Shown here in pieces: positions 1,563-23,130 of a DNA stretch of 32,000 nt (positions within the stretch are counted from its first letter, which is position 1; each line of letters begins with the position of its first letter). Both the position numbers and the translations under genes were made by a program. The notes below the pieces were generated by a model. It was given only the letters and a program-made list of their open reading frames with translations. It was not told the origin of the DNA and searched no databases. Source of the DNA: Tissierellales bacterium (GTDB lineage: Bacteria; Bacillota; Clostridia; Tissierellales; Tissierellaceae). The stretch lies in the NCBI GenBank assembly GCA_014360205.1, contig JACIXZ010000001.1, positions 58,137 to 90,136 of the forward strand. Reading direction: 5' to 3'.

Positions 1563-1574
1563 GGGGGAGTTTTC

Positions 1575-3044: not shown

Positions 3045-3072
3045 TATTAAAACAAAAAAGGAAGGTCAAAAG

Positions 3073-3561
3073 ATGTTTAATATTTTTAACAAGCAAAAGT
3101 CTTTATCTATCTATGCTCCAATGAATGGTAAGTTAATTGACTTAACTGAGGTGGAGGATCCAGTGTTTTCGGAGAAAATGGTCGGAGACGGAGTTGCTAT
3201 AGAGCCTAACGAAAACATTGTATTATCTCCAGTAAAAGGCAAAATCACTCTATTATTTCCAACAAAACATGCGATTGGTATTGAAACAGAAGAGGGATTG
3301 GAAATTTTGATTCACCTAGGCATAGATACAGTAGAGCTAAAGGGAGAAGGATTTAACGCATTTGTAAAAGTAGGTGATAGAGTAAACATTGGTGATAAGC
3401 TTTTGGAGATGAACATAGAAATAATTCAAGAAAAAGGGAAATCAACACATACACCTATTTTGATAACCAATATGGACAAAGTTAAAGAATTAAAACTTAT
3501 GAATAAAGATAGTGTAAAAGCTGGAAAAGATATAATAATGGAAATAATATTAAAGGACTAG
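3073..3561 (+). CDS. crr: PTS glucose-family EIIA component
   Basis: DPVFSEKMVGDGVAIEP plus HAIGIETEEGLEILIHLGIDTVELKGEGF align with the two active-site His of E. coli Crr (HAFSIESDSGVELFVHFGIDTV). Confidence 0.9.
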   Translation: MFNIFNKQKSLSIYAPMNGKLIDLTEVEDPVFSEKMVGDGVAIEPNENIVLSPVKGKITLLFPTKHAIGIETEEGLEILIHLGIDTVELKGEGFNAFVKVGDRVNIGDKLLEMNIEIIQEKGKSTHTPILITNMDKVKELKLMNKDSVKAGKDIIMEIILKD

Positions 3562-3583
3562 TTACTAGTCCTTTAGTTTATTT
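3552..3583 (+). terminator. Intrinsic terminator after the PTS operon
   Basis: A 10-bp stem AAAGGACTAG / CTAGTCCTTT with a TTA loop overlaps the TAG stop, followed by the T-rich AGTTTATTT. Confidence 0.6.
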
Positions 3584-3674
3584 AAAAGATATTAATGTAC
3601 ATTAAATTTTAAAAACTTCTGCCGATTATACTAATAAGGCTAAGTGTATTTACGATTTTGGAGGGGTTGTGTGC

Positions 3675-5369
3675 ATGTTAAAGAACATCGATTTAAAAGT
3701 TTTTAATAAAGACAATCGTAAAGAATTAATATATACATGTAATGAGTTAAAGGATATATTGGAGTTTAAAGACTGGGAGATAATAGTTTTTGATGATGAT
3801 AATATAATTGGATTTAGCATTACTCAAAACATTGGGAATAAAAGTGATAAATTTCATCTAAACAAAAATAATATATACTGTTTTAATAAAGATAATGAGA
3901 ACGATAACATAAGGAAATTATTTAAAGAAAAAAAAGTTTTATTTATTGGAAATGATGAAAACGTATCTGAATCAGAGTTATATATTCCATTGTTTATGAA
4001 TAAGGATAATCATAAAGCACTGATAGGGACATTACATTTAACAGGCGGAGGGATTGCTTTTGATTCACTTATTAAAAATTTAGAAGATGATAAGATATCA
4101 ATGCTGGTTGAAAAAATTTCTGATAAATATGCGATTCACTATATAAGTTCACTAGAAGAGCAATATTTTAAGAATTTCATTCATCTGATTTTTGAAATAA
4201 TAAATGAAAAAGATCCCTCTATGCGATCTCATCCATATAATGTAGCATATTTATCAAATCTATTAGGGCAAACTCTTGGTTTTCCTCAAGAAAGGCTAGA
4301 AAAATTATATATGGCTGCATTGCTTCATGATGTTGGGAAATTATTCATTGACAGTAAAATTTTAAACAAAAAAGGAATACTAACAGATGAGGAAAGAAAA
4401 GAAATACAAAAACATAGTGAATATGGATACAATATTTTGAAGGATATACTTCAAAAGAATAATTCCATTTCAGGAATTGAAGATATTGTACTTCAACATC
4501 ATGAAAGATTTGATGGGACTGGATATCCAAATAGAATTAAAGGGAATAATATTTTACTTGAAAGCAGAATAATATTTATAGCTGATGCCGTAGATGCAAT
4601 GCTGTCGAGAAGAGCTTATAGAGAAGAAAGTTCTATTGATAATGTAATTAGTCAAATAAGAATGAATGCTGGGAAACAATTCGATCCAAAACTATCAAGG
4701 CTCATGATAAATATACTCGTGAATAACAAGAGAATGGAAAATATGATATTGGAAGAACCACTGCTTTTGGGTACATTGGTTGTTCCTCAATTAAATGGAG
4801 TAAAAAATATTCAAGGAACATTGATTAAGAAAAACATTGGATATGAGTTTAAAATTAATATTAATGACTTAAAGAAGAATGGTGATTCTCTTGTAAAAGC
4901 ACCTGAGGGTGTATTTTATACTCAAAGCAAGGGAATGGTGTACGAATATGACGTAAAAATAATTAATTGGGAAGATAACAATATATATTTATCTGATATT
5001 TCACCTAAACCATCAGCTAATTTCTTCAGCATGTCTTGGGAAATAGAAGGAAATCTTATTTTAGGCAAAAATATCGGTTCTGGTGTTACAATAAATAAAA
5101 TAGGTGGAGATTCATTGAGCTTTTACTTAGAAGAGGAAGATGCTGATAATATAGATTTCGACAATGTAAATGCCATCATAATCAAGTTTGATGAAGAAAA
5201 AACCTTAGTACAGGGTGAGATAATTAGGACTATAAAAATAGAAGATAAAACATATGCAGATTTTAAATTCATAGGAATTCCTGAAGCAACTAGGGATATT
5301 ATATTCCGTCAGATATTTAGGAAACAAGCAGAACTTAAAAAAAGAGCAAAGGACTTATTTGAAGAATAG
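3675..5369 (+). CDS. HD-GYP domain protein (putative c-di-GMP phosphodiesterase) with an N-terminal GAF-like region and a C-terminal YcgR-like PilZN+PilZ-like module
   Basis: ATG at 3675 lies 8 nt after GGAGGGG (the track GTG at 3669 is too close to the RBS). The central region has HPYNVAYL...AALLHDVGK...HSEYGY...QHHERFDGTGYP...FIADAVDAM, a complete HD-GYP signature. The C-terminal 200 aa ends in a PilZ-like pattern (FFSMSWEIEG...IGGDSLSF...FKFIGIPEATRDIIFRQIFRKQ). Confidence 0.85.
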   Translation: MLKNIDLKVFNKDNRKELIYTCNELKDILEFKDWEIIVFDDDNIIGFSITQNIGNKSDKFHLNKNNIYCFNKDNENDNIRKLFKEKKVLFIGNDENVSESELYIPLFMNKDNHKALIGTLHLTGGGIAFDSLIKNLEDDKISMLVEKISDKYAIHYISSLEEQYFKNFIHLIFEIINEKDPSMRSHPYNVAYLSNLLGQTLGFPQERLEKLYMAALLHDVGKLFIDSKILNKKGILTDEERKEIQKHSEYGYNILKDILQKNNSISGIEDIVLQHHERFDGTGYPNRIKGNNILLESRIIFIADAVDAMLSRRAYREESSIDNVISQIRMNAGKQFDPKLSRLMINILVNNKRMENMILEEPLLLGTLVVPQLNGVKNIQGTLIKKNIGYEFKININDLKKNGDSLVKAPEGVFYTQSKGMVYEYDVKIINWEDNNIYLSDISPKPSANFFSMSWEIEGNLILGKNIGSGVTINKIGGDSLSFYLEEEDADNIDFDNVNAIIIKFDEEKTLVQGEIIRTIKIEDKTYADFKFIGIPEATRDIIFRQIFRKQAELKKRAKDLFEE

Positions 5370-5387
5370 GCTAGCCTATTCTTTTTT
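5364..5387 (+). terminator. Intrinsic terminator after the HD-GYP gene
   Basis: GAATAGG-CTAG-CCTATTC hairpin overlapping the TAG stop, followed by TTTTTT. Confidence 0.75.
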
Positions 5388-5389
5388 AA

Positions 5390-5418
5390 TTGAAAATGTT
5401 TGCGATAAGACCTATAAT
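5390..5418 (+). promoter_or_regulatory. Sigma-A promoter (TTGAAA-N17-TATAAT)
   Basis: TTGAAA at 5390-5395 and TATAAT at 5413-5418 with exactly 17 nt between them, 31 nt upstream of the ATG at 5450. Confidence 0.6.
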
Positions 5419-5449
5419 TATTGTAATAAATTTGAAGAGGTGATAATAC

Positions 5450-6190
5450 ATGTGGATATTAGCAGTTATTGGTTTAATGTTTATTTTCTTAGGTTTCGCT
5501 GTACATAAACTTAAATGGTACTTTTTGATTTCGGGATATAATATGATGCCAAAAGACAAGAAAAAGAATGTAGATACTGAAGGATTAGGGAAATTAATGG
5601 GCATTTATATGTATTTTATTGGAAGCTTATTTATATTAATGAGTATTATTTCATATTTTAACATTAAGATCATATCACAACTTAATGCTATTTTTATTTC
5701 AGTTTTTATCTTATCAACTATACTGCTTTTGATAAAAGCTCAGAAATACGATCATAATAAACGAGAGAATATTTTCAAATCCAAGGATAAAAATGTATTG
5801 ATAAGTTTGATCATAACCATACCTATAATTATATTTGTCGGAGTTATGATTTTTAGATCTTTACAGCCTGTTGAGATGGAAATAAATGAAATAGGGATTG
5901 AAATTAAAGGTATGTATGGGGATTTGTATCATTGGGAAGAAATTCAAGCATTAGAGTTGAGAGAAGACTTGCCTACCATAGAAATGCGATCAAACGGATC
6001 AAGCATTGCAGGGAAACATAAAGGATATTTTAAAACAAAAGAATATGGGAAAGTGAAATTATATTTAGATTCTAAAAATCCACCATTTATATATATGAAA
6101 GTAAATGATGAATATATAATCATTAATTTAGGGGAAAAGGAAAGAACAACAGAGGTTTATAAAAAGATACAGAGCTTAGATAATAATTAA
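5450..6190 (+). CDS. Membrane protein: N-terminal DUF3784-like TM module plus C-terminal bacterial PH-like domain
   Basis: The RBS GAGGTGA precedes the ATG. The N-terminus has 4 TM segments with the ISGYNMMPKDKKKNVDTEGLGKLMG motif I associate with DUF3784. The C-terminal soluble part (GYFKTKEYGKVKLYLDSKNPPFIYMKVNDEYIIINLGE) resembles bPH domains. Confidence 0.7.
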   Translation: MWILAVIGLMFIFLGFAVHKLKWYFLISGYNMMPKDKKKNVDTEGLGKLMGIYMYFIGSLFILMSIISYFNIKIISQLNAIFISVFILSTILLLIKAQKYDHNKRENIFKSKDKNVLISLIITIPIIIFVGVMIFRSLQPVEMEINEIGIEIKGMYGDLYHWEEIQALELREDLPTIEMRSNGSSIAGKHKGYFKTKEYGKVKLYLDSKNPPFIYMKVNDEYIIINLGEKERTTEVYKKIQSLDNN

Positions 6191-6198
6191 GAGCATAT

Positions 6199-6256
6199 GC
6201 TATTTGGTGAATATTTTATTGGGAAATAACCAATAAGTCACCAAATAGCTTTTTTT
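6199..6256 (+). terminator. Nested hairpin plus T7: terminator of the upstream gene, possibly doubling as an inverted-repeat activator site
   Basis: Outer arms GCTATTTGGTGA (6199-6210) / TCACCAAATAGC (6238-6249), inner arms TTATTGG (6216-6222) / CCAATAA (6230-6236), then TTTTTTT (6250-6256). Confidence 0.6.
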
Positions 6257-6292
6257 ACATATAGAGAATGAGTATTTTTCGAATTTATAAGT

Positions 6293-6308
6293 TGGCACAA
6301 TTTTTGCA
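6293..6308 (+). promoter_or_regulatory. Sigma-54 (RpoN) -24/-12 promoter
   Basis: TGGCAC-AATTT-TTGCA is an exact match to the TGGCAC-N5-TTGCW consensus. It lies about 35 nt upstream of the SBP start codon, and a sigma-54 activator gene sits in the same locus. Confidence 0.85.
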
Positions 6309-6342
6309 ATATTAAATATCAAATTGATGAGGAGGGAACTTT

Positions 6343-8244
6343 ATGAAAAAATCTGTTTCATGGCTACTTATAATTACAATGCTTGTGCTTACTTTAGCAG
6401 GATGTTCTAATAGTAGTACAGGAGATTATGAGGATGTTTTTTATGGCACTTTTTCAGGGGAATATAAGACAATAAACCCATACGATTTATCTTCAGTTAC
6501 AGGTTATACAATAATTGCTAATACTATAGATGGGCTTGTGGAAAACGATAAATATGGCATGGTTGTACCATCTTTAGCTGAAAGTTGGACTAACAATGAA
6601 GACTATACAGTATGGACATTTAAATTAAGACCCGATGTATATTGGGTAGATAACAATGGTCAAAAGACAGAATACAAAGTTACAGCAGATGACTTTGTTG
6701 AAGGAATTAGATATATAGCTGATCCAAAGAATGCTGCAAAGAATTTCAGAATTATATCGAATGTAATTGAAGGAATTTCTGATTATTATTATAATTTAGC
6801 AGACATCGATGATGGTGTTGATATTGGGATGACTAGAGAGCAGGTAGAAAATTCATTTGAAGAAACAGTTGGAGTAAAAGCATTAGATGAATATACAGTA
6901 GAGTATTCTTTAGCTACTTCAACACCGTATTTTCTATCATATTTAGTCATGGAACTTTTTTATCCAGTAGAGAAAGAATTTCTAGATAAAGTAGGAGAGG
7001 ACTTTGCAACATCTAAAGAAACTTTGCTTTATAATGGTGGATATTACATATCTACATGGGAAAGAGATAAGCTCATAGTGCTTGCTAAGAATGAAAATTA
7101 TTGGGATAAGGACAATATAATAGTAAAAGAAATAAATTTGCAAAAAGTTGGAGATGAAATAACAGGGCTTGAAATGTTTCAAAGAGGAGAATTAACAAGC
7201 TGTTCTATATCTGCAGATCAATTGAAAGCTCTAAAAGGCACACAATGGGAAAAATATGTAAATTTAAAAGACAAGAATACTGTTACTTTTTGGTTTACAT
7301 TAAATTATCAATCTAAAAATCCAGAATATAAAACTTTTGTGAACAATTTAAATTTCAGAAAAGCATTGCTTCATGGAATAGATAGAGTAAAGATATCATC
7401 ACTTTATGAACCTAATCAGCCAGAATTCTTTATTAGAAACACAATTATTCCAGAAGAAACAGTATTTGATCCTAACGGTGTAGATTATACAGATTATCCA
7501 AACTTGAAACCATTCAAAGAAAACAATCCTTACGATCCAGAACTAGCTAAAGAGTATATGCTAAAAGCAATATCTGAGCTTTGTGATGATAGTGGAAATA
7601 TAAGAGGAGTTGAAGCTTCAGCAGTTGATATGGATAGGATAGCTAAATTCAATGTTGATGGGAAATTGCCAGTAGATATAGTTTTAGCAACTACCACTGA
7701 CCCCGTAGAAACTAAAAAAGCATTGTTAATCGCAGAAATGTTAAAACAAAATTTAGGAGAAGAAAATGTAAATGTAATAGTTGGATATGCTTCAACGAGT
7801 TTCCAAGACGAAGTTTTTAGTCCAATGAATTTTGACTTAGTAGATGATTCTTATAGTTTTAGATTTGCTGATCCTTCTGCAAATTTAGCACGATTAACCA
7901 CAGACGGTAGCTTAAATGAAGGAGGATATAATATTCCTGAATACGATAAATTAGTTGAAGAAGCTTCGTTGAAGAGCGATTTAGTAGAGAGATACACAAT
8001 ATTTTCAGAAGCGGAAAAATATATGTTAGATAACGTTATTATAATGCCATATATGACCGGTGGAGGGTCTTACTACATGAGCAAAGAAGTACCTTTCCAA
8101 ACTCCAAAGGGACAATTTGGATTAACTAAATATAAGATGAAAGGTGCTAAAATTCAGTCTGATCCAGTGACCAAAGAAGAGTATGAAAAATTGAAAGCAC
8201 AGCATGAAGAAGAGATAAAGAAATTATTCCAAGAAGGGAATTAG
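6343..8244 (+). CDS. Peptide/nickel-type (family 5) ABC substrate-binding lipoprotein
   Basis: Signal peptide with lipobox LTLAGC. OppA/DppA-family blocks are present (TIDGLVENDKYG..VPSLAESW, LAKNENYWDKD, FRKAL..GIDR). The RBS GAGGAGGG precedes the ATG. Confidence 0.9.
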   Translation: MKKSVSWLLIITMLVLTLAGCSNSSTGDYEDVFYGTFSGEYKTINPYDLSSVTGYTIIANTIDGLVENDKYGMVVPSLAESWTNNEDYTVWTFKLRPDVYWVDNNGQKTEYKVTADDFVEGIRYIADPKNAAKNFRIISNVIEGISDYYYNLADIDDGVDIGMTREQVENSFEETVGVKALDEYTVEYSLATSTPYFLSYLVMELFYPVEKEFLDKVGEDFATSKETLLYNGGYYISTWERDKLIVLAKNENYWDKDNIIVKEINLQKVGDEITGLEMFQRGELTSCSISADQLKALKGTQWEKYVNLKDKNTVTFWFTLNYQSKNPEYKTFVNNLNFRKALLHGIDRVKISSLYEPNQPEFFIRNTIIPEETVFDPNGVDYTDYPNLKPFKENNPYDPELAKEYMLKAISELCDDSGNIRGVEASAVDMDRIAKFNVDGKLPVDIVLATTTDPVETKKALLIAEMLKQNLGEENVNVIVGYASTSFQDEVFSPMNFDLVDDSYSFRFADPSANLARLTTDGSLNEGGYNIPEYDKLVEEASLKSDLVERYTIFSEAEKYMLDNVIIMPYMTGGGSYYMSKEVPFQTPKGQFGLTKYKMKGAKIQSDPVTKEEYEKLKAQHEEEIKKLFQEGN

Positions 8245-8245
8245 T

Positions 8246-9187
8246 ATGAAAAAATATATTGTCAAAAGATCGATTCAATCATTAATAACAATATGGATAG
8301 TAATATTTGTTGTATTCATGCTTCTTAGATTAATGCCTACTTCTGGTTATTTTACGCGAGATGACTATTTGACTATGACTGAAGAAATGAGGCAAGCTTA
8401 TTTAAAAAGCATAGGTGTATTGGATCCGCCTTTAACACAGTTTAAAAATTTCGTAATAAATCTTTTCCGTGGGGATTTAGGTAGAAGTATAACCGTTTAT
8501 CCAAAACTTAGCATTACCACCATTCTCAAAGAAAAAATTGGATATTCTGCAGCATTTGGATTTGCGAGCATTGTCATTAGCATGGGCATTGGTATACCGA
8601 TGGGTATACTAATGGCTCGCTATAAGGGAAAGTTAATTGATGATCTAGGAACATTCTATTCGGTAATTGTAAGAGCTGTACCAAGCTTAATATATCTTTT
8701 TCTATTTCAAGTTTGGGTATCTAAAATATTTGGCTTACCGATGCTTTTTTATAAAAACAGACCTGAATCATGGATATTACCCGCAATATCAATGTCGTTG
8801 TCAAGTATTGCTTGGTATGCTATTTGGCTTAGAAGATTTATGGTTGACGAAGCTAATAGAGACTATATAAAGTTTGCTCAAGCTAAAGGATTGTCAGAAA
8901 GCTATGTTATGAAAAATCATGTCCTTAGAAATGCTTTTGTACCAATAGCTATTGGGATACCATCAGATTTGCTATTAATTATTTCAGGTTCGCTAATTAT
9001 TGAAAACTTATATTCAATTCCAGGCATGGGAGGTTTGCTTATAGATTCAATAAAGCAGATGGACAATAATTTAGTGCAAGCACTTGTTTTGATTTATTCA
9101 GTTCTTTCGGTATTGGGTGTATTTTTAGGTGATTTATTGATAGTATTAGTAGACCCTAGAATAAGGCTAACAGAGAGTGAGGATTAA
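8246..9187 (+). CDS. ABC transporter permease (OppB/DppB/GsiC type)
   Basis: The N-terminus YIVKRSIQSLITIWIVIFVVF, six TM segments, and an EAA-like loop (DYIKFAQAKGLSESYVMKNHVLRNA). Confidence 0.9.
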   Translation: MKKYIVKRSIQSLITIWIVIFVVFMLLRLMPTSGYFTRDDYLTMTEEMRQAYLKSIGVLDPPLTQFKNFVINLFRGDLGRSITVYPKLSITTILKEKIGYSAAFGFASIVISMGIGIPMGILMARYKGKLIDDLGTFYSVIVRAVPSLIYLFLFQVWVSKIFGLPMLFYKNRPESWILPAISMSLSSIAWYAIWLRRFMVDEANRDYIKFAQAKGLSESYVMKNHVLRNAFVPIAIGIPSDLLLIISGSLIIENLYSIPGMGGLLIDSIKQMDNNLVQALVLIYSVLSVLGVFLGDLLIVLVDPRIRLTESED

Positions 9188-9190
9188 ATT

Positions 9191-10132
9191 ATGGATAAGA
9201 TGTATTATAACGGAATAGAATTAACTGATGACTTATTTGATAAAATACCGTTAGATGAACATTTATCAGAAGAAAGTGGGTACTCTAATTACTCATACTG
9301 GAGATCAACATTTAGGACCTTTTTTAAGAGCAAACTGAGCATCTTCTTAGTGGTGGTTATTTTGGCATTAAGCTTATTTAGTTTCCTATATCCTGTTTTT
9401 TCTAGCACTGATCCTCAACAAATTACATTAGATGTTGATAAATGGAATATGGGTCCAAACAGTGAAAATTGGTTTGGTACAGATGGACTAGGCAGAGATA
9501 TATGGGCAAGAACATGGTATGGGACTAGGAATTCTTTACTATTGGCCCTAGTTATAGCAGTAATAGAAGTAGGAGTTGGAAGCATAATTGGGGCTATATG
9601 GGGCTATGTAAGGAAAATGGACCGATTTATGATTGAACTTTATAATATTATAACTAACATACCTTCTACAGTTTATCTAATATTATTGTCTTATATACTC
9701 GAACCAAGTTTTACAACTATAGTTATAGCATTAGCATCGAGTGGATGGATAGTGGAAGCTAAATTTATGAGAAATAAAGTACTTTCTTTAAGAGAAAGTG
9801 AATATAATATTGCTTCACAGTGTTTAGGAACTCCATTAAGAAGAGTGGTTTCTAAAAATATCATTCCTCATCTTATAAGTTTAATAATCATGGAAGCAGC
9901 ATTGACAGTTCCTTATTCTATAGGTTCTGAAGTTTTCTTGGGATTCATTGGATTAGGATTACCATTGGATACTGTTACTTTAGGCAATATGGTAAATCAA
10001 GGTAGAGCTAATTTTATGCTCTATCCTTATCAAATGCTGTATCCAACAATTGTATTATGCATCATAACAATCTCATTTTATATTGTTGGGAACAAATTTG
10101 CTGATGCATCTGATCCTAAGAATCATGTGTAG
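9191..10132 (+). CDS. ABC transporter permease (OppC/DppC/GsiD type)
   Basis: [18 protein letters not shown] motif, TM core, and EAA-like loop ([24 protein letters not shown]). Confidence 0.9.
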
Positions 10133-10140
10133 GAGGAAAT

Positions 10141-12141
10141 ATGGATACTAAAATATTAGAAGCTAAAAATATAGTTATTAAGTTTAATCTCAGAGGGAAA
10201 ATTTTAACGGCTGTTAGAAATTCCTCTCTAGATTTATACAAAGGAGAAACACTTGCAATAGTCGGAGAGAGCGGATCTGGCAAGAGTGTGTTTACAAAAT
10301 CTTTTGTTGGAATGTTAGACAAAAATGGTTGGATAGATGAAGGAGAGTTACTATATGATGGAAAAGATTTAGCGAAATTCAAAACAGAAAAAGAGTGGCT
10401 GTCTATAAGGGGAAAAAGAATTGCAATGGTATTTCAAGATCCTATGACTTCGCTTAACCCATTGAAAACTATCGGCGAGCAGATAAGAGAAGTAATAACT
10501 TGGCATAGGAACACTCCCAAAGATGAAGCAAAAAAAGAAGCTATCGAAATATTAAAAATGGTCGGAATAGATGATGCAGAAAAAAGATTTAAGCAATACC
10601 CTCATGAATTTTCTGGCGGGATGAGGCAAAGAGTAGTAATAGCAACAGCAATAGCATGTAGACCGGATATACTTATTTGTGATGAACCAACTACGGCTTT
10701 GGATGTAACCATACAAGCTCAGATCTTAAAGCTAATAAAAGATCTACAAAAAGAACTTAATATGACAGTTATTTATATAACTCATGACTTAGGGGTAGTA
10801 GCAAATGTGGCAGATAGAGTAGCCGTTATGTATGCAGGTCAAATAGTTGAATATGGACTTAGTAATGAAATATTCAAAGATCCAAAACATCCATATACAA
10901 AAGCATTATTATTATCATTGCCTCAACTTGGATTAAAAGGAGAAGATCTATTTTACATAAAAGGAACTCCTCCAAACCTCTATAGAGAAATTAAAGGTGA
11001 TGCATTTGCACTTAGAAATCCACACGCACTTAAGATAGATACTATGTACGAACCACCATTTTTCAAAGTATCTGAAACCCATTATGCAAAGACATGGTTA
11101 TTGCACGAAAAAGCCAATGACAATCTAGTTGTTGAAAAATTAGAACATAATGGGAAACAGAAAAAAGAACTCAACAAATACAATGAGAAAAAAGAAGTTT
11201 TAGTTTCATTGAGAAATGTTACTGTGAAATTTAAACTTGATGGCAAACAATTTAAAGCAGTTGAAGATGTTAGCTTTGATATATACAAAGGTGAAACTTT
11301 TTCATTAGTCGGAGAAAGTGGATCTGGGAAAACAACTATCGGAAGAGCCATCATGAAAATTCATCCTGTTTCAGAAGGGGAAATATATTTTAAAGATAAA
11401 TTAATCAGCAAAAAATTAAAAAAAGATGATATGAAGGCATTTAGACAGAGTGTGCAAATGATATTTCAAGACCCTATGGCTTCACTCAATGAAAGAGCAA
11501 AAGTAGACTACATTGTATCTGAAGGGTTGTATAACTTTAAACTTTATAACGATGAAGAAGATAGGAAAAGAAAAGTCGAAAAAGCTATGGAAGAAGTAGG
11601 ATTATTAAAAGACTTTTTAACTAGATTTCCACATGAATTTTCTGGTGGTCAGAGGCAAAGAATAGGGATAGCTAGAGCATTGGTTATGGAACCGGAATTT
11701 ATAATAGCTGATGAGCCTATTTCGGCTTTAGATGTATCAATAAGAGCTCAGATAATTAATTTGCTTAACAAATTAAAAGATGAAAAAGACTTAACATATT
11801 TGTTTATTGCTCACGATTTAAGTGTAGTAAAGTTTATATCTGATCGAATTGCAGTTATATACAAAGGACATATTGTAGAATTAGCCGATAGTGATGAGCT
11901 TTTTGAAAATCCTCTACATCCATACACTAAATCACTTTTATCTGCTGTTCCTATTCCTGACCCAGATCTAGAGAAAAATAAAAAAATATTGATTTACAAT
12001 CCAAAGATTCATGATTATTCTATCAACAAACCTAAATGGACTGAGATAAAAAAAGGACATTTCATATGGGCAAATGATAAAGAAATAGATCAATATAAAG
12101 TAGAGCTAGATAGAAATCAATATGATAAGGAGAAAAATTAA
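10141..12141 (+). CDS. Fused double-cassette ABC ATPase (OppD-OppF fusion, GsiA-like)
   Basis: Two complete cassettes lie in one 666-aa ORF. Cassette 1 has Walker A GESGSGKS, signature FSGGMRQR and Walker [13 protein letters not shown]. Cassette 2 has [16 protein letters not shown] and [12 protein letters not shown]. Each is followed by the oligopeptide-type C-terminal HPYT motif. Confidence 0.9.
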
Positions 12142-12998
12142 TGAAAGGTAAATTAGTTATTGCAGGCGGAAACTTAGAAGAAAGCGAATATAAAATTCAT
12201 AAATATTTTGTAGAGAATGCGTCTAAACATGGAAATAAAATTGCTATAGTTCCAACTGCATCTGGAAATGAACCAATTGAAACCATAGAACACGTTAAAT
12301 CGATTTGGAAAGGACTGGGGGTAGATGAAGATAATATTATAATAGTTCCAATATATGGTGACGAAGGTAGTTTTTGGCGAGATCCACCCCTTGGAGACGA
12401 TGACGAAATTGTCGATACTTTTGTTGACATAAATGGGTTCTGGTTTACAGGCGGAGACCAATACTATACTCACAAAGCTTTTATTAGGAAAAATGGGGAT
12501 GACACGAAAGCCCTTATGAAAATGAAAGAGATATATGAGACAGGAGGCATAATTGGGGGCACTAGTGCAGGAGCAGCAATAATGAGTAAAGTAATGATAG
12601 GTTCAGGGGATAACACTGATGTGCTAAAAGGTAGGATAAAATATGGCTATGATGATTATGATGAAGAAAATGATGACTATATGAGAATAGTAAAAGGATT
12701 AGGATTTTTTGAATTGGGCATAGTAGATCAACATTTTGATAAGCGAGCTAGGCTCCTTAGACTTGCTAGAGCAGTATTGGAATCTGATAATAAGACTTTA
12801 CTAGGATTTGGAGTATCTGAGGACACAGCATTGATATATGATAAGGACAAGGAGACTTTAGCAGTATTAGGGTCTGGTGCGGTTTTTATGCTAGATTCAA
12901 GGCGAACAAAAAACTGTAAAACAGATGAAAAATTTTCTTTTGAAAGAATAGAAGTAAGCATATTTAGAGATGGTGAACGAATAGAGCTTACACTATGA
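12141..12998 (+). CDS. cphB: Cyanophycinase-type S51 serine peptidase, with no signal peptide (predicted cytoplasmic)
   Basis: The ATG overlaps the ATPase stop (TAATG). LVIAGGNLEE..IAIVPTASG..FTGGDQ..GGTSAGAAIMS (nucleophile Ser)..VDQHF..RARL..RL..GVSEDTAL follows the cyanophycinase/S51 layout, and the length of 285 aa fits cyanophycinase better than PepE. Confidence 0.75.
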   Translation: MKGKLVIAGGNLEESEYKIHKYFVENASKHGNKIAIVPTASGNEPIETIEHVKSIWKGLGVDEDNIIIVPIYGDEGSFWRDPPLGDDDEIVDTFVDINGFWFTGGDQYYTHKAFIRKNGDDTKALMKMKEIYETGGIIGGTSAGAAIMSKVMIGSGDNTDVLKGRIKYGYDDYDEENDDYMRIVKGLGFFELGIVDQHFDKRARLLRLARAVLESDNKTLLGFGVSEDTALIYDKDKETLAVLGSGAVFMLDSRRTKNCKTDEKFSFERIEVSIFRDGERIELTL

Positions 12999-13001
12999 TT
13001 A

Positions 13002-13367
13002 TTAAATAAAGTTTGAAATAATTATTAGAATTATACCTGCAACAATATTACTAAGTATTGGTTCTCTTGTATTTTTTTCTGATTTGGCAGTAAATGAATC
13101 ATCTTCATACATGTTTAAAATACCTTTATTTTTAGGCTTTTTAAAGATTGATTTTATGGAAGATGACTTTGAAAACAATTTAAATAGTTTAAGACCATCT
13201 TCTGACAAATAATTAATCCAGCCAATAAGTAGGAGTAAGCCTCCTGAAAAACCAAACAAAATATTAAGCCTACTAAATTCAAAGAATAAGAGATTATCTA
13301 AGACATATATTAGAGCTGAGGATATAACTAATTTTAGAATTAGGTGTTTAATAAACATAAATCGCAT
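13002..13367 (-). CDS. Small hypothetical membrane protein (121 aa)
   Basis: Start chosen at the ATG at 13367 (MRFMFIKH...), preceded by GGAG. There are 3 predicted TM stretches and a basic central loop. The longer track start at 13460 would overlap the activator gene start. No family recognised. Confidence 0.5.
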   Translation of the reverse strand: MRFMFIKHLILKLVISSALIYVLDNLLFFEFSRLNILFGFSGGLLLLIGWINYLSEDGLKLFKLFSKSSSIKSIFKKPKNKGILNMYEDDSFTAKSEKNTREPILSNIVAGIILIIISNFI

Positions 13368-13381
13368 AATTTCATCTCCAA

Positions 13382-13390
13382 TGATATAAT
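13382..13390 (+). promoter_or_regulatory. Candidate extended -10 promoter (TGaTATAAT) for the activator-hydrolase unit
   Basis: TG at 13382-13383 and TATAAT at 13385-13390, about 57 nt upstream of the ATG at 13447. No convincing -35 element. Confidence 0.35.
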
Positions 13391-13446
13391 TATAAATTAT
13401 AGCATAAGCTAAAGCATTAAACAATTCTGAATGGATAGGTGATATT

Positions 13447-15486
13447 ATGCAAAAGAGCATAGTTTTGATAACAGGTTCTGGGAATACAAAAAAACATCTT
13501 TATAGTCAGCTTCGAGAGTTTATTCCTGAGTATATAACTATTAAAAGTTTGGCGATTGAAGAGAATGTCCCAAATGAAATAACTGCAGACTTAATGATAT
13601 ATTCAAGTGAAAATCTTGTAAATGAACTAAAAGAAAGAGGAATAAAGTTAAATTGTAAAGATTATATAATAAGCGAAAGAAGTATAAATTTTGATCATAT
13701 TGAACTGGTTGCAAATATTCCTCCCAAAACAGAAGTTTTACTAGTTAACGATGAGAAGGAAACTGCACAAAGTTCAATTGAAGACTTGATGGAGTTAGGA
13801 TTAAACCATATAAAATATTATCCATATTATCCAGGGATTGATAAATATAAAAAATTAAAAATTGCGATAACACCTGGAGAATCAGATAAAGTACCTGACT
13901 GTGTAGAAAAGGTAATAGATTTAGGACCTAGGATTATGGACATTAACACTCTTTACAAAATAATGGATAAATTAAATTTTGACAACAAAGATACAAGATT
14001 TTTTACTAAGAGATATATGCAAAAAATCATAAATGTATCAAAAAATATTTCTTTAGTCAATAATAACATAAACACTTTAAACACGTATCTTAACAATATA
14101 GTAAACAGTTTAGTTAACGGTATACTGGTAATCGATGAAAATGGGTACATCAAATACGCTAATGAACAGATGACCAAATTACTTTCTCCAGACAAAAGGA
14201 ATATTGAAAATAGAAATGTAAAGAACTTAGTTGATAAAGAAGTTTTAAAATACTTTATGAGTGCTGAGTTTTATGAAAATAAAGAAATAGAAATTGCAGG
14301 ACTTATTATAAAAGCATCAAAATTTAAGATTCCAAATAGTGATAATATTGTCATAACAACGAGTAAAGAAAAAAGAGCAAATTCTAAAAGCAAATATAGT
14401 CATGATTTACTCTTAAAAGGACATTTTGCAAAATATGATTTTGATGACATAATTGGGAAAAGTCCTCAAATAAACGAAGTTAAATTAACTGCATTGAAAC
14501 TTTCAAAGTCTGACTTAACAGTATTAATTGAAGGAGAAAGCGGTACAGGAAAAGAATTATTTGCATCGGCAATTCACAATACATCAAAACGAAAAGACGG
14601 ACCATTTTTAGCCGTTAATTTCAGTGCACTTCCTGATGAGTTGATTGAGTCTGAGCTTTTTGGATACGAAGAAGGAGCTTTCACTGGGGCAAAAAAAGGA
14701 GGGAAAATAGGATTATTTGAGTTAGCTGATGGAGGAACGATTTTTTTAGATGAAATTGGCGACATATCTTTAAAAGTACAGACTAAATTATTAAGGGTAC
14801 TACAAGAAAAGGAGATAATGCCGATTGGGGGAACAAACATTAAATCAGTTGATGTTAGAGTTATTGCAGCAACAAATAAAGATTTAAGGAAAATGGTAAA
14901 AGAAAAACAATTCAGATCTGATCTTTATTATAGATTAAAAATTGGATATATCAATTTACCACCTCTTAGACAAAGAGTTTCTGATATTAAAGATTTAGTC
15001 GAATATTTTATTTCAAAAGAAACATCTAAAAGAATAGATATTTCAAAAGAAGTGATTGAGGAATTTGAAAGCTATAAATGGCTAGGTAATGTAAGGGAAT
15101 TAGAGTCAACAATTAAATATATGCTAGCTGTAAGAACTAGTGAAATATTGACAATAGAGGATTTACCTGATAAGAAATTTTTCGAGGAAGAAATAGAAAA
15201 TTATGATTGCGAAGATGAATATGAATTCAAAATTCTTAGTGGAGAGATGTTAACTATATTGAATACAATTAAAAAATTAGAAGATAACAATTTAAATGCA
15301 AGCAGAGAAAAAATAACGAAGTTTTTGAATGATATTGGGATAAATATAACAGAAAATATGATAAGAACTAAACTCAATTATTTAGAAGAATATGGATATA
15401 TCACTAAAACTAGAGGAAAGAAAGGCACAGTCTTAACCAGAAAAGGATTGGCTTATTTGAATAGTATGATTATTGAAGGTGAATAA
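13447..15486 (+). CDS. Sigma-54-dependent transcriptional activator (N-terminal sensory region, PAS, AAA+ and a C-terminal winged-helix-like DNA-binding domain)
   Basis: Walker A GESGTGKELFA, ESELFGYEEGAFTGA (GAFTGA loop), GGTIFLDEIG, VRVIAATN, FRSDLYYRL, WLGNVRELE. A PAS-like segment (VNGILVIDENGYIKYANEQMTKLL) precedes the AAA+ core. Confidence 0.9.
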   Translation: MQKSIVLITGSGNTKKHLYSQLREFIPEYITIKSLAIEENVPNEITADLMIYSSENLVNELKERGIKLNCKDYIISERSINFDHIELVANIPPKTEVLLVNDEKETAQSSIEDLMELGLNHIKYYPYYPGIDKYKKLKIAITPGESDKVPDCVEKVIDLGPRIMDINTLYKIMDKLNFDNKDTRFFTKRYMQKIINVSKNISLVNNNINTLNTYLNNIVNSLVNGILVIDENGYIKYANEQMTKLLSPDKRNIENRNVKNLVDKEVLKYFMSAEFYENKEIEIAGLIIKASKFKIPNSDNIVITTSKEKRANSKSKYSHDLLLKGHFAKYDFDDIIGKSPQINEVKLTALKLSKSDLTVLIEGESGTGKELFASAIHNTSKRKDGPFLAVNFSALPDELIESELFGYEEGAFTGAKKGGKIGLFELADGGTIFLDEIGDISLKVQTKLLRVLQEKEIMPIGGTNIKSVDVRVIAATNKDLRKMVKEKQFRSDLYYRLKIGYINLPPLRQRVSDIKDLVEYFISKETSKRIDISKEVIEEFESYKWLGNVRELESTIKYMLAVRTSEILTIEDLPDKKFFEEEIENYDCEDEYEFKILSGEMLTILNTIKKLEDNNLNASREKITKFLNDIGINITENMIRTKLNYLEEYGYITKTRGKKGTVLTRKGLAYLNSMIIEGE

Positions 15487-15487
15487 A

Positions 15488-16363
15488 ATGAATATGAGAA
15501 AAATAATTGTAGAAGACAACCCTTCATTTGAGCAAGAAGTATATGAATTTGGGGAGAATCACCCTAAACTAATGATAACTGCTGGGATTCATGGAGATGA
15601 AGTAGCTGGGATATCTATAGCATATGAGTTGATTGAGTTTTTAAACAGTACAAAGCTTAAAAATGGGAGCATCAAGATTATGCCTAAGTGCAATCCAGTT
15701 GCAACTAGGGGATTTAGTAGAACTTCTTTTTATGATGAAGTGGATATGAATAGAATATTTCCTGGAAATGAAATAGATGGGGCAACTCATAAAGCTGCAA
15801 AAAATATTTGGGATGAAGCTTGTGATATGGATATAATAATTGATCTACATTGTGCAAATCAATATTCGATACCTTATATTCTATCAATATATGATAAATT
15901 TCCAAAGGCACTATCAGTTATAAATCATTTGCCACTAGATAATTTAGTTCAGTCGGCAGGGCTTAGAGGTCAATTCTTTGTTGAAAGCAATTACTTAAGG
16001 GAGCAAATTGCATTTATCATAGAAATTCCAAGTGGGTCGTCAAAAGGTGCAATTAACACTCATTTAGCGAAAAAGTGTTTTGAGGCCTTAAAAAATCTGC
16101 TAATAGCTCTTGACTTTATCGAAGGAAAAACCGTTAACAATCCACCCACATATTATGGAGAAATTTTTGAAATAAAAACACCTGCTTCTGGATTGTTTAA
16201 ACCAATAAAATCATCAGGAGATATGGTATATGAGGGGGAAATATTAGGGGAAATTGGTGATTTTAAATTAATAGCTGAAACTGATTTAAAGGTTCACAGC
16301 ATAATACCTGATTCTTTTGTATACAAAGGAGATTTCATATATTCATATATATTAAAAAAGTAA
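15488..16363 (+). CDS. Succinylglutamate desuccinylase/aspartoacylase (AstE/AspA, M14-like) family zinc hydrolase
   Basis: ATG at 15488 lies 7 nt after GAAGGTG (the track TTG at 15473 overlaps the upstream gene). Motifs are ITAGIHGDEVAG (His/Glu Zn ligands), NPVA..R....DMNRIFPG and IIIDLHCA (third Zn His). Confidence 0.8.
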   Translation: MNMRKIIVEDNPSFEQEVYEFGENHPKLMITAGIHGDEVAGISIAYELIEFLNSTKLKNGSIKIMPKCNPVATRGFSRTSFYDEVDMNRIFPGNEIDGATHKAAKNIWDEACDMDIIIDLHCANQYSIPYILSIYDKFPKALSVINHLPLDNLVQSAGLRGQFFVESNYLREQIAFIIEIPSGSSKGAINTHLAKKCFEALKNLLIALDFIEGKTVNNPPTYYGEIFEIKTPASGLFKPIKSSGDMVYEGEILGEIGDFKLIAETDLKVHSIIPDSFVYKGDFIYSYILKK

Positions 16364-16390
16364 ACTTAAAGCTACCTTTAGGAGGATAAC

Positions 16391-17557
16391 ATGATAAAAC
16401 TAATTAGGAACGGGATAGTATATGCTCCATCATACATTGGAAAGAAAGACATATTGATTGCTGATGACAAGATAATTGATTTAAGGGACAATATATCTTT
16501 GGAAGGACTTGAGTATGAGTTAATAGATGCTAAGGGAAAATTCGTAGTTCCTGGGCTTATTGATAGCCACGTACATGTATGTGGCGGTGGCGGAGAAGGT
16601 GGATACAAGACAAGAACTCCAGAAATCACTCTTACGGATATAACTACAGCAGGGGTTACCACAGTTGTTGGAGTCCTAGGTACAGATGGAACATCAAGAA
16701 CAATGTCAAATTTATTAGCTAAAGTTTATGCTTTAAATGAAGAAGGAATTACAGCATATGCTTACACTGGATCATATCAAGTGCCAGTAAGAACTGTAAC
16801 AGGAAGCATTACTGATGATTTGATATTGATAGAAAGAATAATAGGGACTGGTGAAATAGCTATATCAGACCATAGATCTTCTTGTCCAAGTGTAGAAGAA
16901 CTTATTAGGCTTACATCAGATACTAGAGTTGGCGGGATGCTATCAGGTAAAGCTGGAGTAATAAACTTACATTTAGGAGATAGCAAGAATCCACTAAAGA
17001 TAATTTATGATCTACTTGACAAATCTGATATACCAATAACTCAGTTTTTACCGACTCATATGAGTAGAAATGAATGGATTTTGGAAGAAGCAATTGAGTA
17101 TGCAAGGCATGGAGGATATGTCGACTTTACAACAAGCACAACTAAAAAGTTCATAGAAGAAGGAGAAATATCATCAAGCAAAGCAGTAAGAAAAATGATT
17201 GACCATGGAATAGACATATCGCAAATAACAATTTCGTCAGATGGACAGGGAAGTCTACCTTCATTTGACAAAGAAGGAAATCTTGTTGGGCTAATGATTG
17301 GGAAAGTCTCCTCAATTTTGCAATGTATAAAAAATATGTATTTTGAAGAGAGGATAGATTTCGAAAGCTGCTTAAAGGTAGCCACAGAGAACCCTGCTCA
17401 AATATTGAAATTAAAGAACAAAGGGCAAATTAAAAAAGGTTTTGATGCTGATATATTGATTTTGAGTAAAGAAACTTTAGATTTGGATACATTAATCTCA
17501 AAAGGGCAAATCATGATAAAGCAAAAGGAAATTAAAATCAAAGGAACTTTTGAATAA
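16391..17557 (+). CDS. iadA: Isoaspartyl (beta-aspartyl) dipeptidase
   Basis: Collinear with E. coli IadA as I remember it: PGLIDSHVHVCGGGGEGGYKTRTPE, GVTTVVGVLGTDG.SR, LLAK..ALNEEGI, AISDHRSS.P, RVGGMLSGKAG, LPTH..RN, SSDGQGS.P.FD.EGNL, and the identical C-terminal KGTFE. The RBS is AGGAGG. Confidence 0.92.
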   Translation: MIKLIRNGIVYAPSYIGKKDILIADDKIIDLRDNISLEGLEYELIDAKGKFVVPGLIDSHVHVCGGGGEGGYKTRTPEITLTDITTAGVTTVVGVLGTDGTSRTMSNLLAKVYALNEEGITAYAYTGSYQVPVRTVTGSITDDLILIERIIGTGEIAISDHRSSCPSVEELIRLTSDTRVGGMLSGKAGVINLHLGDSKNPLKIIYDLLDKSDIPITQFLPTHMSRNEWILEEAIEYARHGGYVDFTTSTTKKFIEEGEISSSKAVRKMIDHGIDISQITISSDGQGSLPSFDKEGNLVGLMIGKVSSILQCIKNMYFEERIDFESCLKVATENPAQILKLKNKGQIKKGFDADILILSKETLDLDTLISKGQIMIKQKEIKIKGTFE

Positions 17558-17581
17558 ATACTATGAAATTTCATAGTATTT
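17556..17581 (+). terminator. Hairpin after iadA (probable terminator)
   Basis: AAATACTATGAA / TTCATAGTATTT perfect palindrome starting in the stop codon, followed by the moderately T-rich ATTATTATTT. Confidence 0.5.
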
Positions 17582-17700
17582 ATTATTATTTAAAGCAAAT
17601 AAATTTGTAAAATTGGATTTAGATTTATAAGAGCAAATTTTATACATTTGTGTTTATTTTTGGGAATATGGGTAATATAAATTCAAAAGGGGGAATAATA

Positions 17701-18552
17701 ATGACAGTAAAAGTTGTAATAGACAGTATTTGCTCACCTTCTTTGAATTTGGTGAGAGAGCACAATATTCCTATAGTACCTATAAATATTCATGTAGGTG
17801 AGGATATATTTGAAGATGTGATTGATGTTGATGCACAAGAACTTTATGAAAAATTAGAAAAGGATGAAGTTAAAATAACAACATCAGCACCATCTTATGA
17901 AAGATTTTATCAAGAGTTCAAAACGGCAATTGAATCTTATGACCATTGCTTATGTATGACAGTAGCATCTTCGGTTAGCAACACTTACTCGTTAGCTATG
18001 AAGGCGAGAGAGGAGTTTAATGAAAAGGATAGAGATCGTATAATTATATTTGACACCAATACTGCAGGACCAGCCTCTAGTTTATTAGTGATGGAAGCTA
18101 TAAAAATGGCTGAAAATCAGGAAGATATTGACCAAATATTAAATGTTTTAAATGAATTAAGGCCGAACGCAAAATTTTCCCTTATATTATCTACATTGAA
18201 ATATGTTCAAAGAAGTGGAAGAATTGGCAAAGTAGCCTCAGTAGCTGGTGATTTATTCAATATAAAGCCACTAGTATATTTAAAAAATGGTGAAATTAAA
18301 TTTTTTGGTAGAGCAAGAGGAATGAATCAAGGGTACAAAATGATGATAGAAGAGCTAAAAAAAGATACAGAGGGCAAAGATATGTTAAGGGTAGCGATAT
18401 CTCACTCAAATGTAGAGGATGAGGCGTTAAAGCTTAAAAGCATGATAGAAGAAGTCTACCCTGATTTAAGCATTGACATCTCTCCTCTAACACTTGCTAT
18501 TGGACTACATGTAGGGCCAGGAGTTGTTTCGATAGGTTATACTTATAAATAG
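17701..18552 (+). CDS. DegV family fatty-acid-binding protein (FakB-like)
   Basis: ATG at 17701 follows AAAGGGGG. VKVVIDSICS, TTSAPS, ASSVSNTYSLA and LKYVQRSGRIGKV match DegV hallmarks. The track start at 17650 has no RBS. Confidence 0.85.
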   Translation: MTVKVVIDSICSPSLNLVREHNIPIVPINIHVGEDIFEDVIDVDAQELYEKLEKDEVKITTSAPSYERFYQEFKTAIESYDHCLCMTVASSVSNTYSLAMKAREEFNEKDRDRIIIFDTNTAGPASSLLVMEAIKMAENQEDIDQILNVLNELRPNAKFSLILSTLKYVQRSGRIGKVASVAGDLFNIKPLVYLKNGEIKFFGRARGMNQGYKMMIEELKKDTEGKDMLRVAISHSNVEDEALKLKSMIEEVYPDLSIDISPLTLAIGLHVGPGVVSIGYTYK

Positions 18553-18553
18553 C

Positions 18554-23004: not shown

Positions 23005-23012
23005 AGCAGAGT

Positions 23013-23118
23013 ATCTTCAGGGCGAGGTGCAATTCCTCACCGGTGGTAAAGCCCACGAGCCGAAAGGTTGATCTGGTGAAATTCCAGAGCCGACAGTATA
23101 GTCTGGATGAAAGAAGAT
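23013..23118 (+). promoter_or_regulatory. FMN riboswitch (RFN element) aptamer
   Basis: ATCTTCAGGGCGAGGTGCAATTCCTCACCGGTGGTAAAGCCCACGAGCC...GGTGAAATTCCAGAGCCGACAGTATAGTCTGGATGAAAGAAGAT carries the invariant RFN blocks (GGGC.GGGTG.AATTCC..ACCGG.GGT, AGCCC.CGAGC, GGTGAAATTCC...GCCGACAGT.TAGTCTGGATG..AGAAG) and a P1 closing helix ATCTTC/GAAGAT. Confidence 0.93.
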
Positions 23119-23130
23119 TTTATTCGATTT

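Follow-up and report, generated by a model that had tools for sequence, protein, structure and literature searches.

A Tissierellales locus that may import and digest cyanophycin fragments made by other microbes under sigma-54 control

What use does a bacterium have for a cyanophycinase that stays in the cytoplasm and is encoded next to a peptide importer, with no cyanophycin synthetase gene in view? The question is raised by a locus at positions 6293 to 17557 of a 32-kb stretch of DNA from a Tissierellales bacterium (GenBank assembly GCA_014360205.1, contig JACIXZ010000001.1, positions 58,137 to 90,136); this whole stretch is the window of the present analysis. Behind an exact sigma-54 -24/-12 element, five tightly packed genes encode a lipoprotein substrate-binding protein (SBP), two permeases, a double-cassette ATPase, and a peptidase of family S51. 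They are followed by a small membrane protein gene on the opposite strand and then by genes for a sigma-54 enhancer-binding protein (EBP) with the GAFTGA motif, a zinc amidohydrolase of the AstE/AspA superfamily (here, the AstE-like enzyme), and the isoaspartyl dipeptidase IadA (Table 1). An earlier sequence-only reading of this DNA had listed the same parts, all of which are present, and had proposed that they salvage beta-aspartyl peptides derived from cyanophycin; the family score of the S51 protein and the conservation of the sigma-54 element lend support to that proposal. Our analysis suggests that this is probably a Firmicute-type locus by which a Soehngenia-like anaerobe imports and digests cyanophycin fragments made by other microbes.

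The predicted cytoplasmic cyanophycinase and its importer

The S51 protein matches the cyanophycinase model TIGR02069 at 160.3 bits (cut-off, 126.6), its sole match among the NCBIfam families. PepE (dipeptidase E), named in the sequence-only reading as the profile to be compared with TIGR02069, was ruled out, since no PepE model matched and the pocket residues are kept. The protein aligns to the solved cyanophycinases 7uqv (E value, 3e-20) and Synechocystis CphB (3en0/7uqw), and its identity to characterised cyanophycinases is about 30%. In CphB the catalytic triad is reported to be Ser132-His174-Glu201 (Law et al. 2009), and the beta-Asp-Arg pocket is formed by Gln101, Asp172, Gln173, Arg178, Arg180, and Arg183; this numbering was checked against the tagged chain 3en0. 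Across 15 aligned members of the clade, with identities as low as 43%, the equivalent triad residues (S142, H198, and E227) and all six pocket equivalents (Q107, D196, Q197, R202, R204, and R207) are invariant. Judged by family and residues, the enzyme is a predicted cyanophycinase that would cut cyanophycin or (beta-Asp-Arg)n to beta-Asp-Arg. It has an extra acidic insertion at about residues 160 to 180, and many of its relatives are longer by about 110 aa at the C terminus.

The chain begins directly in the catalytic domain and has no signal peptide, as had been read from the translation, which rules out a secreted enzyme in the case of the window protein. Its start codon overlaps the stop codon of the ATPase gene (TAATG, 12139-12143), an arrangement of translational coupling, and the three preceding intergenic gaps measure 1, 3, and 8 nt. 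Because relatives of 394 aa also lack signal peptides, their extra length being C-terminal and not N-terminal, a cytoplasmic cyanophycinase coupled to an importer is, as far as sequences tell, the rule in this clade. Metagenomic relatives of the importer-coupled S51 protein form 1297 clusters at an E value of 1e-10 or less. One very abundant clade among them (P0048 to P0120, e.g., P0058 with 1450 member sequences) consists of cytoplasmic S51 proteins of about 394 aa that bear the extension of about 110 aa. Tissierellaceae also have a second type of S51 protein without a signal peptide, 49% identical (L005, L086, and L087, where L numbers denote related loci; e.g., L086:10001-10894); it adjoins HTH/DUF2975 genes, with no importer, IadA, or AstE-like genes.

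The locus as a whole is conserved. Soehngenia longivitae (GCA_004684055.1, SRIB01000001.1:165260-186117) has an annotated cyanophycinase with 78% identity to the S51 protein, and in its genome the locus is present gene for gene, flanks included; the whole locus is syntenic at 82 to 96% identity in a Tissierellaceae metagenome-assembled genome (MAG; L002). At 34 to 73% identity, the core of SBP, two permeases, ATPase, S51 protein, small membrane protein, and AstE-like enzyme, in most cases together with IadA, recurs in a Sedimentibacter MAG (L004), metagenome contigs (L084 and L085), Bacillota/Eubacteriales MAGs (L006 and L007), a Clostridia MAG (L088), and, with split ATPases, a Brevibacillus genome (L089). 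Every Opp-type locus compared has the AstE-like enzyme alongside a member of this S51 clade, and for 17 of the 120 best AstE-like relatives the longest contig matches exactly in length that of an S51 relative among the 120 best, which points to shared contigs. The Brevibacillus locus has an asparaginase-II-family gene (PF06089; L089:435-1463, minus strand) in the place of IadA, between the Opp ATPase genes and the S51 gene. Sedimentibacter is listed in the literature with the extracellular CphE of the cyanophycin degrader S. hongkongensis KI (PMC6920838, Table 3).

Profile searches confirm the parts of the importer. The SBP matches PF00496 at 177 bits and carries the lipobox LTLAGC. Its nearest solved relatives are the pneumococcal oligopeptide binders AliD, AliC, AliB, and AmiA (626 to 638 aa; E values, 1e-46 to 5e-42), and it is distant from DppA (1e-7) and GsiB (2e-6). 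The SBP and permeases score as generic Opp proteins, with no diagnostic specificity signal. Orthology with the Gsi system was ruled out both for the SBP (34 bits against the GsiB model; cut-off, 594) and for the ATPase (591 bits against the GsiA model; cut-off, 1077). The sequence-only reading had suggested soluble beta-Asp-Arg oligomers, rather than only dipeptides, as the cargo. We infer oligomer import likewise, because every relative shows translational coupling between the importer and a depolymerase of the cytoplasm and because the SBP is closest to AliD/AliC/AliB/AmiA; its likeness to these binders of long oligopeptides fits oligomer import without proving it.

The sigma-54 promoter, its activator, and a candidate operator

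The element ahead of the SBP gene, TGGCACAATTTTTGCA, is the only exact match to TGGCAC-N5-TTGCW in the window, and it ends 34 nt before the SBP start codon. The sole site with one mismatch, at 2345, lies within a PTS gene and was set aside as a chance match. An equivalent element precedes the orthologous SBP gene by 34 to 37 nt in L002, L082, L004, and L084. When the pattern TGGCAY-N5-TTGCW was counted in 83 non-redundant, partly interrelated loci, 40 matches were found against 2.2 in shuffles (18-fold), and the reversed pattern gave 0. Nearly all matches lie 20 to 150 nt upstream of a gene for an SBP, a secreted tandem-S51 protein, a YfcC/DcuC transporter, or IadA. Sigma-54 elements thereby precede cyanophycin-utilisation genes in about 35 Bacillota loci and in one Treponemataceae locus, a MAG in which the element stands directly ahead of IadA; in Brevibacillus the promoter lies between the divergent Opp-S51 operon and the EBP/AstE-like gene pair.

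Among the related loci, three further arrangements were observed. (i) In Bacillaceae and in a Clostridium MAG, genes that each lie directly behind a sigma-54 promoter encode secreted proteins, about 835 to 870 aa long, with a signal peptide and two tandem S51 domains. (ii) In many Bacillota loci the ABC importer is replaced by a secondary transporter of the YfcC/DcuC family (PF03606), behind a sigma-54 promoter and followed by IadA, which is a candidate carrier of beta-Asp-Arg dipeptides. (iii) L006, L007, and L088 have an RpiR-type regulator (HTH_6 plus SIS; L088:1275-2165, minus strand) and no sigma-54 element. Thus, the same catabolic module appears to be wired to different regulators.

Upstream of the promoter, a perfect 12-bp inverted repeat is followed by seven T residues (Table 1). 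Its RNA fold has an energy of -25.1 kcal/mol (z = -6.8), and we read it as the intrinsic terminator of the upstream DUF3784 gene. The repeat encloses one copy each of TTATTGG and CCAATAA and is kept in L002 and L082 while the flanks diverge. Of 32 related sigma-54 promoter regions, 23 contain the motif TWATTGG/CCAATWA, compared with 6.9% of random 140-nt windows. Relative to the -24 element, its proximal copies lie at -42, -52 to -54, -62 to -64, and -72 to -74, a helical phasing of about 10 bp. The TTATTGG/CCAATAA repeat is therefore a candidate upstream activator site for the EBP.

The EBP matches PF00158 (231 bits), PF25601, PF08461, and, weakly, PAS. It comprises an unclassified N-terminal alpha/beta domain (residues 1 to 175; model pLDDT, about 90), a PAS domain, an AAA+ domain that contains GAFTGA, and a C-terminal winged helix. 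Full-length orthologues, 38 to 48% identical with similarity that includes the N-terminal domain, are encoded adjacently in about 20 loci; in many Bacillota they are neighbours of cyanophycinase/IadA genes. Residues 1 to 175 have no Pfam match, a fold search with the N-terminal half of the EBP gave PAS-domain matches only, and a protein search with the N terminus found 26 mostly partial relatives. This domain (13447-13970) bears the signature LLVND...YYPYYPG...ITPGE...VID.G.R, which is conserved from Tissierellia to Bacilli and Spirochaetes. Identity with PrdR was ruled out (359 bits against a cut-off of 795, with the N-terminal domain uncovered).

The second unit starts with the EBP gene; the most likely start of the AstE-like gene is the ATG at 15488, 1 nt past the EBP stop codon. 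The AT-rich hairpin behind IadA, as read from the letters, is likely the terminator of this unit; it was not picked up by a G+C-based terminator scan. A scan of 5300-18700 for sigma-70 promoters and terminators was uninformative in such AT-rich DNA (70 promoter-like matches against 72 in shuffles). Further upstream in the window, at 648-5369, lie genes for a BglG-type antiterminator, PTS EIIBC and EIIA, and a 566-aa HD-GYP-type (HD_5) protein; Soehngenia longivitae has these neighbours beside its locus as well, and they are apparently outside the system. Downstream, an FMN riboswitch (RF00050, 119 bits) at 23009-23122 on the plus strand precedes the S component of an ECF-type transporter, so that the mechanically listed open reading frame (ORF) at 23043-23804 starts too early.

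Table 1. Coordinates of the features of the locus in the 32-kb window and of selected features of related loci
Feature	Position	Strand	Description
Perfect 12-bp inverted repeat GCTATTTGGTGA / TCACCAAATAGC	6199-6249	+	Followed by T7 (to 6256); encloses motif copies
TTATTGG copy	6216-6222		Within the 12-bp inverted repeat
CCAATAA copy	6230-6236		Within the 12-bp inverted repeat
Sigma-54 -24/-12 element	6293-6308	+	TGGCAC-N5-TTGCA
SBP gene	6343-8244	+	Lipoprotein, family 5, OppA/AmiA-like, 633 aa
OppB-like permease gene	8246-9187	+	PF00528; Opp3B-like matches under equivalog cut-offs
OppC-like permease gene	9191-10132	+	PF12911 and PF00528
Fused OppD-OppF ATPase gene	10141-12141	+	666 aa, two ABC cassettes; 2x PF00005 (ABC_tran), 2x PF08352 (oligo_HPY)
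S51 cyanophycinase gene (predicted)	12141-12998	+	285 aa, TIGR02069
Small three-helix membrane protein gene	13002-13367	-	121 aa, no family match
EBP gene	13447-15486	+	679 aa, PF00158, GAFTGA
AstE/AspA-superfamily zinc amidohydrolase gene	15488-16363	+	291 aa, COG3608-type "predicted deacylase," PF24827
IadA gene	16391-17557	+	388 aa, TIGR01975
AT-rich hairpin and T-rich tail	17558-17592	+	AATACTATGAA-AT-TTCATAGTATT, then TATTATTATTT
Secreted tandem-S51 proteins, related loci	L018:8654-11260; L021:8675-11179; L028, L030, L048, L049, L054, L059, L069, L071, L075, L078		
YfcC/DcuC transporters, related loci	L018:13714-15384; L021:4758-6179 (-); L029, L038, L042, L046, L053, L063, L068, L072		
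Small membrane protein homologues, related loci	L082:10859-11227; L085:6987-7388; L004 about 7340-7760 (-); L088:9579-10004 (+)		

Proposed dipeptide hydrolysis and the probable source of the substrate

The window IadA is, on sequence, an unambiguous isoaspartyl dipeptidase orthologue: it matches TIGR01975 at 531 bits (cut-off, 331) and is similar over its full length to 7cdh (E value, 7e-115) and to E. coli IadA, 1onw (4e-98). [quoted passage not shown] The sequence-only reading had been unaware that an enzyme of the AstE/M14 family, CphZ, is already established as a beta-Asp-Arg hydrolase (PMC9974463). CphZ is described there as essentially proteobacterial, with a working definition that asks for over 30% identity to AbCphZ at a coverage above 70%, and according to its authors, Sharon and Schmeing, the isoaspartyl dipeptidases of both Firmicutes and Bacteroidota "remain undiscovered." The window enzyme falls outside this definition: phmmer finds fragments only (E value, 2e-7), and the structure-based identity is 17 to 18%. 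The AF2 model (pLDDT, 96) has a Foldseek top group with TM scores of 0.76 to 0.81 and 17 to 21% identity, which includes CphZ (8ein/8eip), 3fmc and 3lwu (suggested to be CphZs in PMC9974463), the N-acetyl-diaminobutyrate deacetylase DoeB (6twm), and 2qj8, 3cdx, and 3na6, whose function is unknown.

Parts of the CphZ active site can be traced in the AstE-like enzyme. H35, E38, and H121 are invariant and correspond to the H-E-H zinc site of CphZ (H50, E53, and H179); the N88-R89 pair is kept; the loop GQ(L/F)F(T/V)ES(C/N) aligns with CphZ GHPFDEAC; and E166, conserved in at least 90% of sequences, corresponds to CphZ E223, which contacts the Arg/Lys side chain. The invariant E179 (IIELPSG) corresponds to the catalytic E251 of CphZ (TFELGS) by manual alignment, an assignment that is less certain since HMMER put this stretch in an insert. 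Orthology with CphZ was ruled out by the low identity and two changed contact residues (see below), but a similar mode of action was kept as a possibility. The AstE-like enzyme thus appears to form a separate subfamily of the CphZ superfamily. Those of its close relatives that have been characterised all remove an acyl group from an amino acid's alpha-amino group, the type of reaction that beta-Asp-Arg cleavage requires.

The 121-aa membrane protein has no Pfam or NCBIfam match. Homologues lie between the S51 and AstE-like genes in L082, L085, L004, L006, L007, and L088, and share the invariant residues G42, L46, W50, Y53, L54, and G58 (G..L...W..YL...G); usually encoded on the opposite strand, they have a basic and then an acidic loop. 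The protein is a conserved component of this locus type and has this position in every Opp-type locus.

Is cyanophycin the source of the peptides? The substrate is suggested by the enzyme families and by the literature, and an alternative, which we consider unlikely, is that the locus salvages isoaspartyl or aspartyl peptides in general, from aged proteins or proteolysis, with the S51 protein acting as a broader Asp-specific peptidase for which cyanophycin is not the physiological substrate. It would agree with the generic scores of the SBP and permeases, with the modest identity, acidic insertion, and frequent C-terminal extensions of the S51 proteins, and with the finding that IadA enzymes from cyanophycin clusters stay promiscuous for beta-aspartyl dipeptides (PMC10206079). 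However, it would leave unaccounted for the invariance of the six CphB pocket residues and the cyanophycinase model as sole match; the AstE-like enzyme retains the Glu with which CphZ contacts the Arg/Lys side chain, and in Bacillaceae the same EBP/sigma-54 regulon drives secreted tandem cyanophycinases, which make sense only for a polymer.

Another possibility, to which we give a still lower probability, is endogenous turnover: a cphA gene elsewhere in the genome would make cyanophycin, the S51 enzyme would mobilise the cell's own granules, and the importer would be unrelated or serve to recapture peptides. The S51 protein is indeed cytoplasmic like CphB and CphI, and all 179 of the 179 cphA1-positive Firmicute genomes also carry a cyanophycinase (PMC10206079). 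Yet, cphA1 and cyanophycinase genes are clustered in 81% of the genomes that have both (PMC10206079), and no synthetase gene was seen here. As the sequence-only reading had stated, the window has none: no ORF exceeds 679 aa, and none has a Mur-ligase P-loop. Nor was a cphA-like ORF found within 10 kb in 91 related loci (1.6 Mb) by ORF size, N-terminal motif, and Mur-ligase P-loop motif, these being motif tests rather than an HMM search of the genome. Endogenous turnover also sits poorly with the overlap of the S51 gene with the stop codon of the importer ATPase gene, a coupling kept over deep divergence, and with the presence of IadA, which is nearly constant in this locus type, whereas IadA/IaaA genes occur in only 10% of cphA1-positive Firmicutes (PMC10206079).

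Least probable is the uptake and deacylation of some other N-acyl or branched amino-acid compound, with the AstE-like enzyme as the key step and S51 and IadA as ancillary enzymes: the AstE-like enzyme is the importer's most constant partner, resembles DoeB and proteins of unknown function to an equal degree, and in Brevibacillus is found with an asparaginase-II-family protein in the place of IadA, but such a pathway gives no reason for a constant cyanophycinase-class enzyme with an intact pocket, and no ectoine, AST, or other pathway genes lie nearby.

Import and digestion of cyanophycin fragments made by others thus remains our preferred reading, and several points that weigh against it should be set beside the evidence. 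(i) In structure, the AstE-like enzyme is no closer to CphZ than to DoeB or to proteins of unknown function. The equivalent of CphZ D222 is V or T, and that of D181 is A, S, or G, two residues past the zinc His (DLHCA/DLHCCS/DLHCCG). D181 contacts the Asp moiety together with K366, and the chain ends before any K366 equivalent can be assigned. (ii) The preferred reading gives no reason for two dipeptide hydrolases in one locus. (iii) The sigma-54 promoter heads the five-gene unit only, and the AstE-like and IadA genes share a transcript with the activator gene; because they ride on that transcript, both hydrolases may be present before induction. (iv) The candidate activator site coincides with the terminator hairpin, so that its conservation may in part reflect termination. 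(v) The promoter counts come from loci partly related to each other and do not represent independent events. (vi) The negative results for cphA, rpoN (no such gene lies in the window), and a secreted cyanophycinase hold for the 32-kb window, not for the rest of the genome.

According to the preferred reading, cyanophycin of lysed producers would be partly cut outside the cell by secreted cyanophycinases that belong to neighbours or have their genes elsewhere in the genome; with no secreted cyanophycinase in view, this first extracellular cut would have to come from elsewhere. Some CphE enzymes may release (Asp-Arg)2 tetrapeptides. The lipoprotein SBP, of the OppA/AmiA class, would capture beta-Asp-Arg/Lys dipeptides and probably also short (beta-Asp-Arg)n oligomers, which the two permeases and the fused double-cassette ATPase would import. 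The cytoplasmic S51 enzyme, made in a fixed ratio with the importer, would cut the oligomers to dipeptides, and IadA and the AstE-like amidohydrolase would split these into Asp and Arg or Lys. Transcription of the importer-cyanophycinase operon would need sigma-54 and the adjacent EBP, which may use its N-terminal or PAS domains to sense a metabolite of the pathway and may bind the TTATTGG/CCAATAA repeat about 60 to 80 bp upstream.

A more far-reaching reading, possible but doubtful when all its parts are taken jointly, is that these loci belong to an unrecognised Bacillota-wide sigma-54/EBP regulon for cyanophycin scavenging marked by TWATTGG/CCAATWA. In it, an Opp variant would import (beta-Asp-Arg)n through an AmiA/Ali-like SBP for depolymerisation inside, the COG3608 AstE-like enzyme would be the "missing" dipeptide hydrolase of Firmicutes, and the small membrane protein would be an essential, new component.

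In sediments, digesters, and guts, cyanophycin is increasingly viewed as a currency of nitrogen and carbon that is shared, and the abundance of metagenomic S51 relatives raises the possibility that this pathway is a common, overlooked route by which anaerobic Firmicutes use the cyanophycin fragments of others. The AstE-like subfamily is a concrete candidate for the undiscovered isoaspartyl dipeptidases of Firmicutes, and Soehngenia longivitae offers a cultured host with the identical locus. The sigma-54/EBP pair and its candidate operator provide a regulatory marker for spotting such loci and possibly a switch responsive to beta-Asp peptides.

Comparison with known systems

The S51 protein shares with CphB and CphI (3en0, 7uqv, and 7uqw) the fold, the Ser-His-Glu triad, the pocket, and the lack of a signal peptide; it differs by its identity of about 30%, its acidic insertion, and the linkage of its gene to an importer instead of cphA. 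CphZ/AotO and the aot importer of Pseudomonas (PMC9974463) likewise place an AstE/M14 amidohydrolase beside an ABC importer with no synthetase in view. The AstE-like enzyme has the same fold as CphZ (TM score, 0.76 to 0.79 to 8ein/8eip) and keeps the H-E-H site, the catalytic Glu, and the E223-type Glu, whereas it is about 18% identical, is 291 aa long instead of 370 aa, and does not conserve D222 and D181. The importer is of the Opp type and not of the AotJQMP amino-acid type.

The sequence-only reading had also drawn a parallel with the E. coli iaaA-gsiABCD operon. As an analogy it stands, since both systems pair a beta-aspartyl peptidase with a family-5 SBP importer and a fused double-cassette ATPase. 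As orthology it does not, given that the SBP and the ATPase score far under the Gsi cut-offs; moreover, the peptidase is IadA here and IaaA in E. coli, and the E. coli operon has no cyanophycinase.

Sigma-54/EBP control of amino-acid catabolism has precedents, and B. subtilis RocR is one such regulator. With the regulon of RocR and with those of PrdR, OrdR, and others in Clostridiales (PMC6615313), the window locus shares a PAS plus AAA+ EBP encoded beside its target operon, a -24/-12 promoter with upstream repeats, and the theme of catabolism of nitrogen-rich amino acids. The window EBP group is set apart by its own N-terminal domain and winged-helix DNA-binding domain, and the candidate TWATTGG/CCAATWA site differs from the TGT-N10-12-ACA site of many clostridial EBPs (PMC6615313). 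The reconstruction of the clostridial sigma-54 regulon, which covers PrdR, OrdR, and others, lists no cyanophycin regulon (PMC6615313), and literature searches that paired cyanophycin or cyanophycinase with sigma-54, sigma54, or rpoN returned nothing relevant. RpoN control of such a pathway, which the sequence-only reading had taken to be undescribed, therefore appears to be unreported so far.

The same reading had held the gene combination to be uncharacterised as well, and here the literature says otherwise. Cyanophycinase and IadA/IaaA genes cluster, with transporters noted, in 45 of 52 complete genomes without cphA1 (Sharon and Schmeing 2023, PMC10206079), and a "cyanophycin utilization locus" in a Bacteroidetes isolate is attributed to Ben Hania et al. 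2017 as cited in PMC10206079; the combination is thus already known as a kind. The window locus and these published scavenging loci have in common a cyanophycinase gene and an isoaspartyl dipeptidase gene less than 5 kb apart, a transporter, and no cphA1 nearby (here, 3.4 kb separate the end of the S51 gene, 12998, from the start of IadA, 16391, and the ABC importer lies directly upstream of S51), and the purpose attributed to both is the use of cyanophycin from other organisms. The window locus differs (i) by its ABC importer, which is of the Gram-positive Opp/Ami type and has a lipoprotein SBP and a fused ATPase, (ii) by the cytoplasmic location and translational coupling to the importer of the sole cyanophycinase in view, and (iii) by an extra AstE-like hydrolase, a conserved small membrane protein, and sigma-54 with a dedicated EBP. 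No mention of Opp-type coupling, the AstE-like enzyme, the small membrane protein, or sigma-54/EBP control was found in the published accounts of such loci, one of them represented by its citation. What appears to be new compared with them is the sigma-54/EBP regulon with its candidate operator, the coupling of an Opp/Ami importer with a cyanophycinase inside the cell, the separate AstE-like subfamily, and the conserved small membrane protein.

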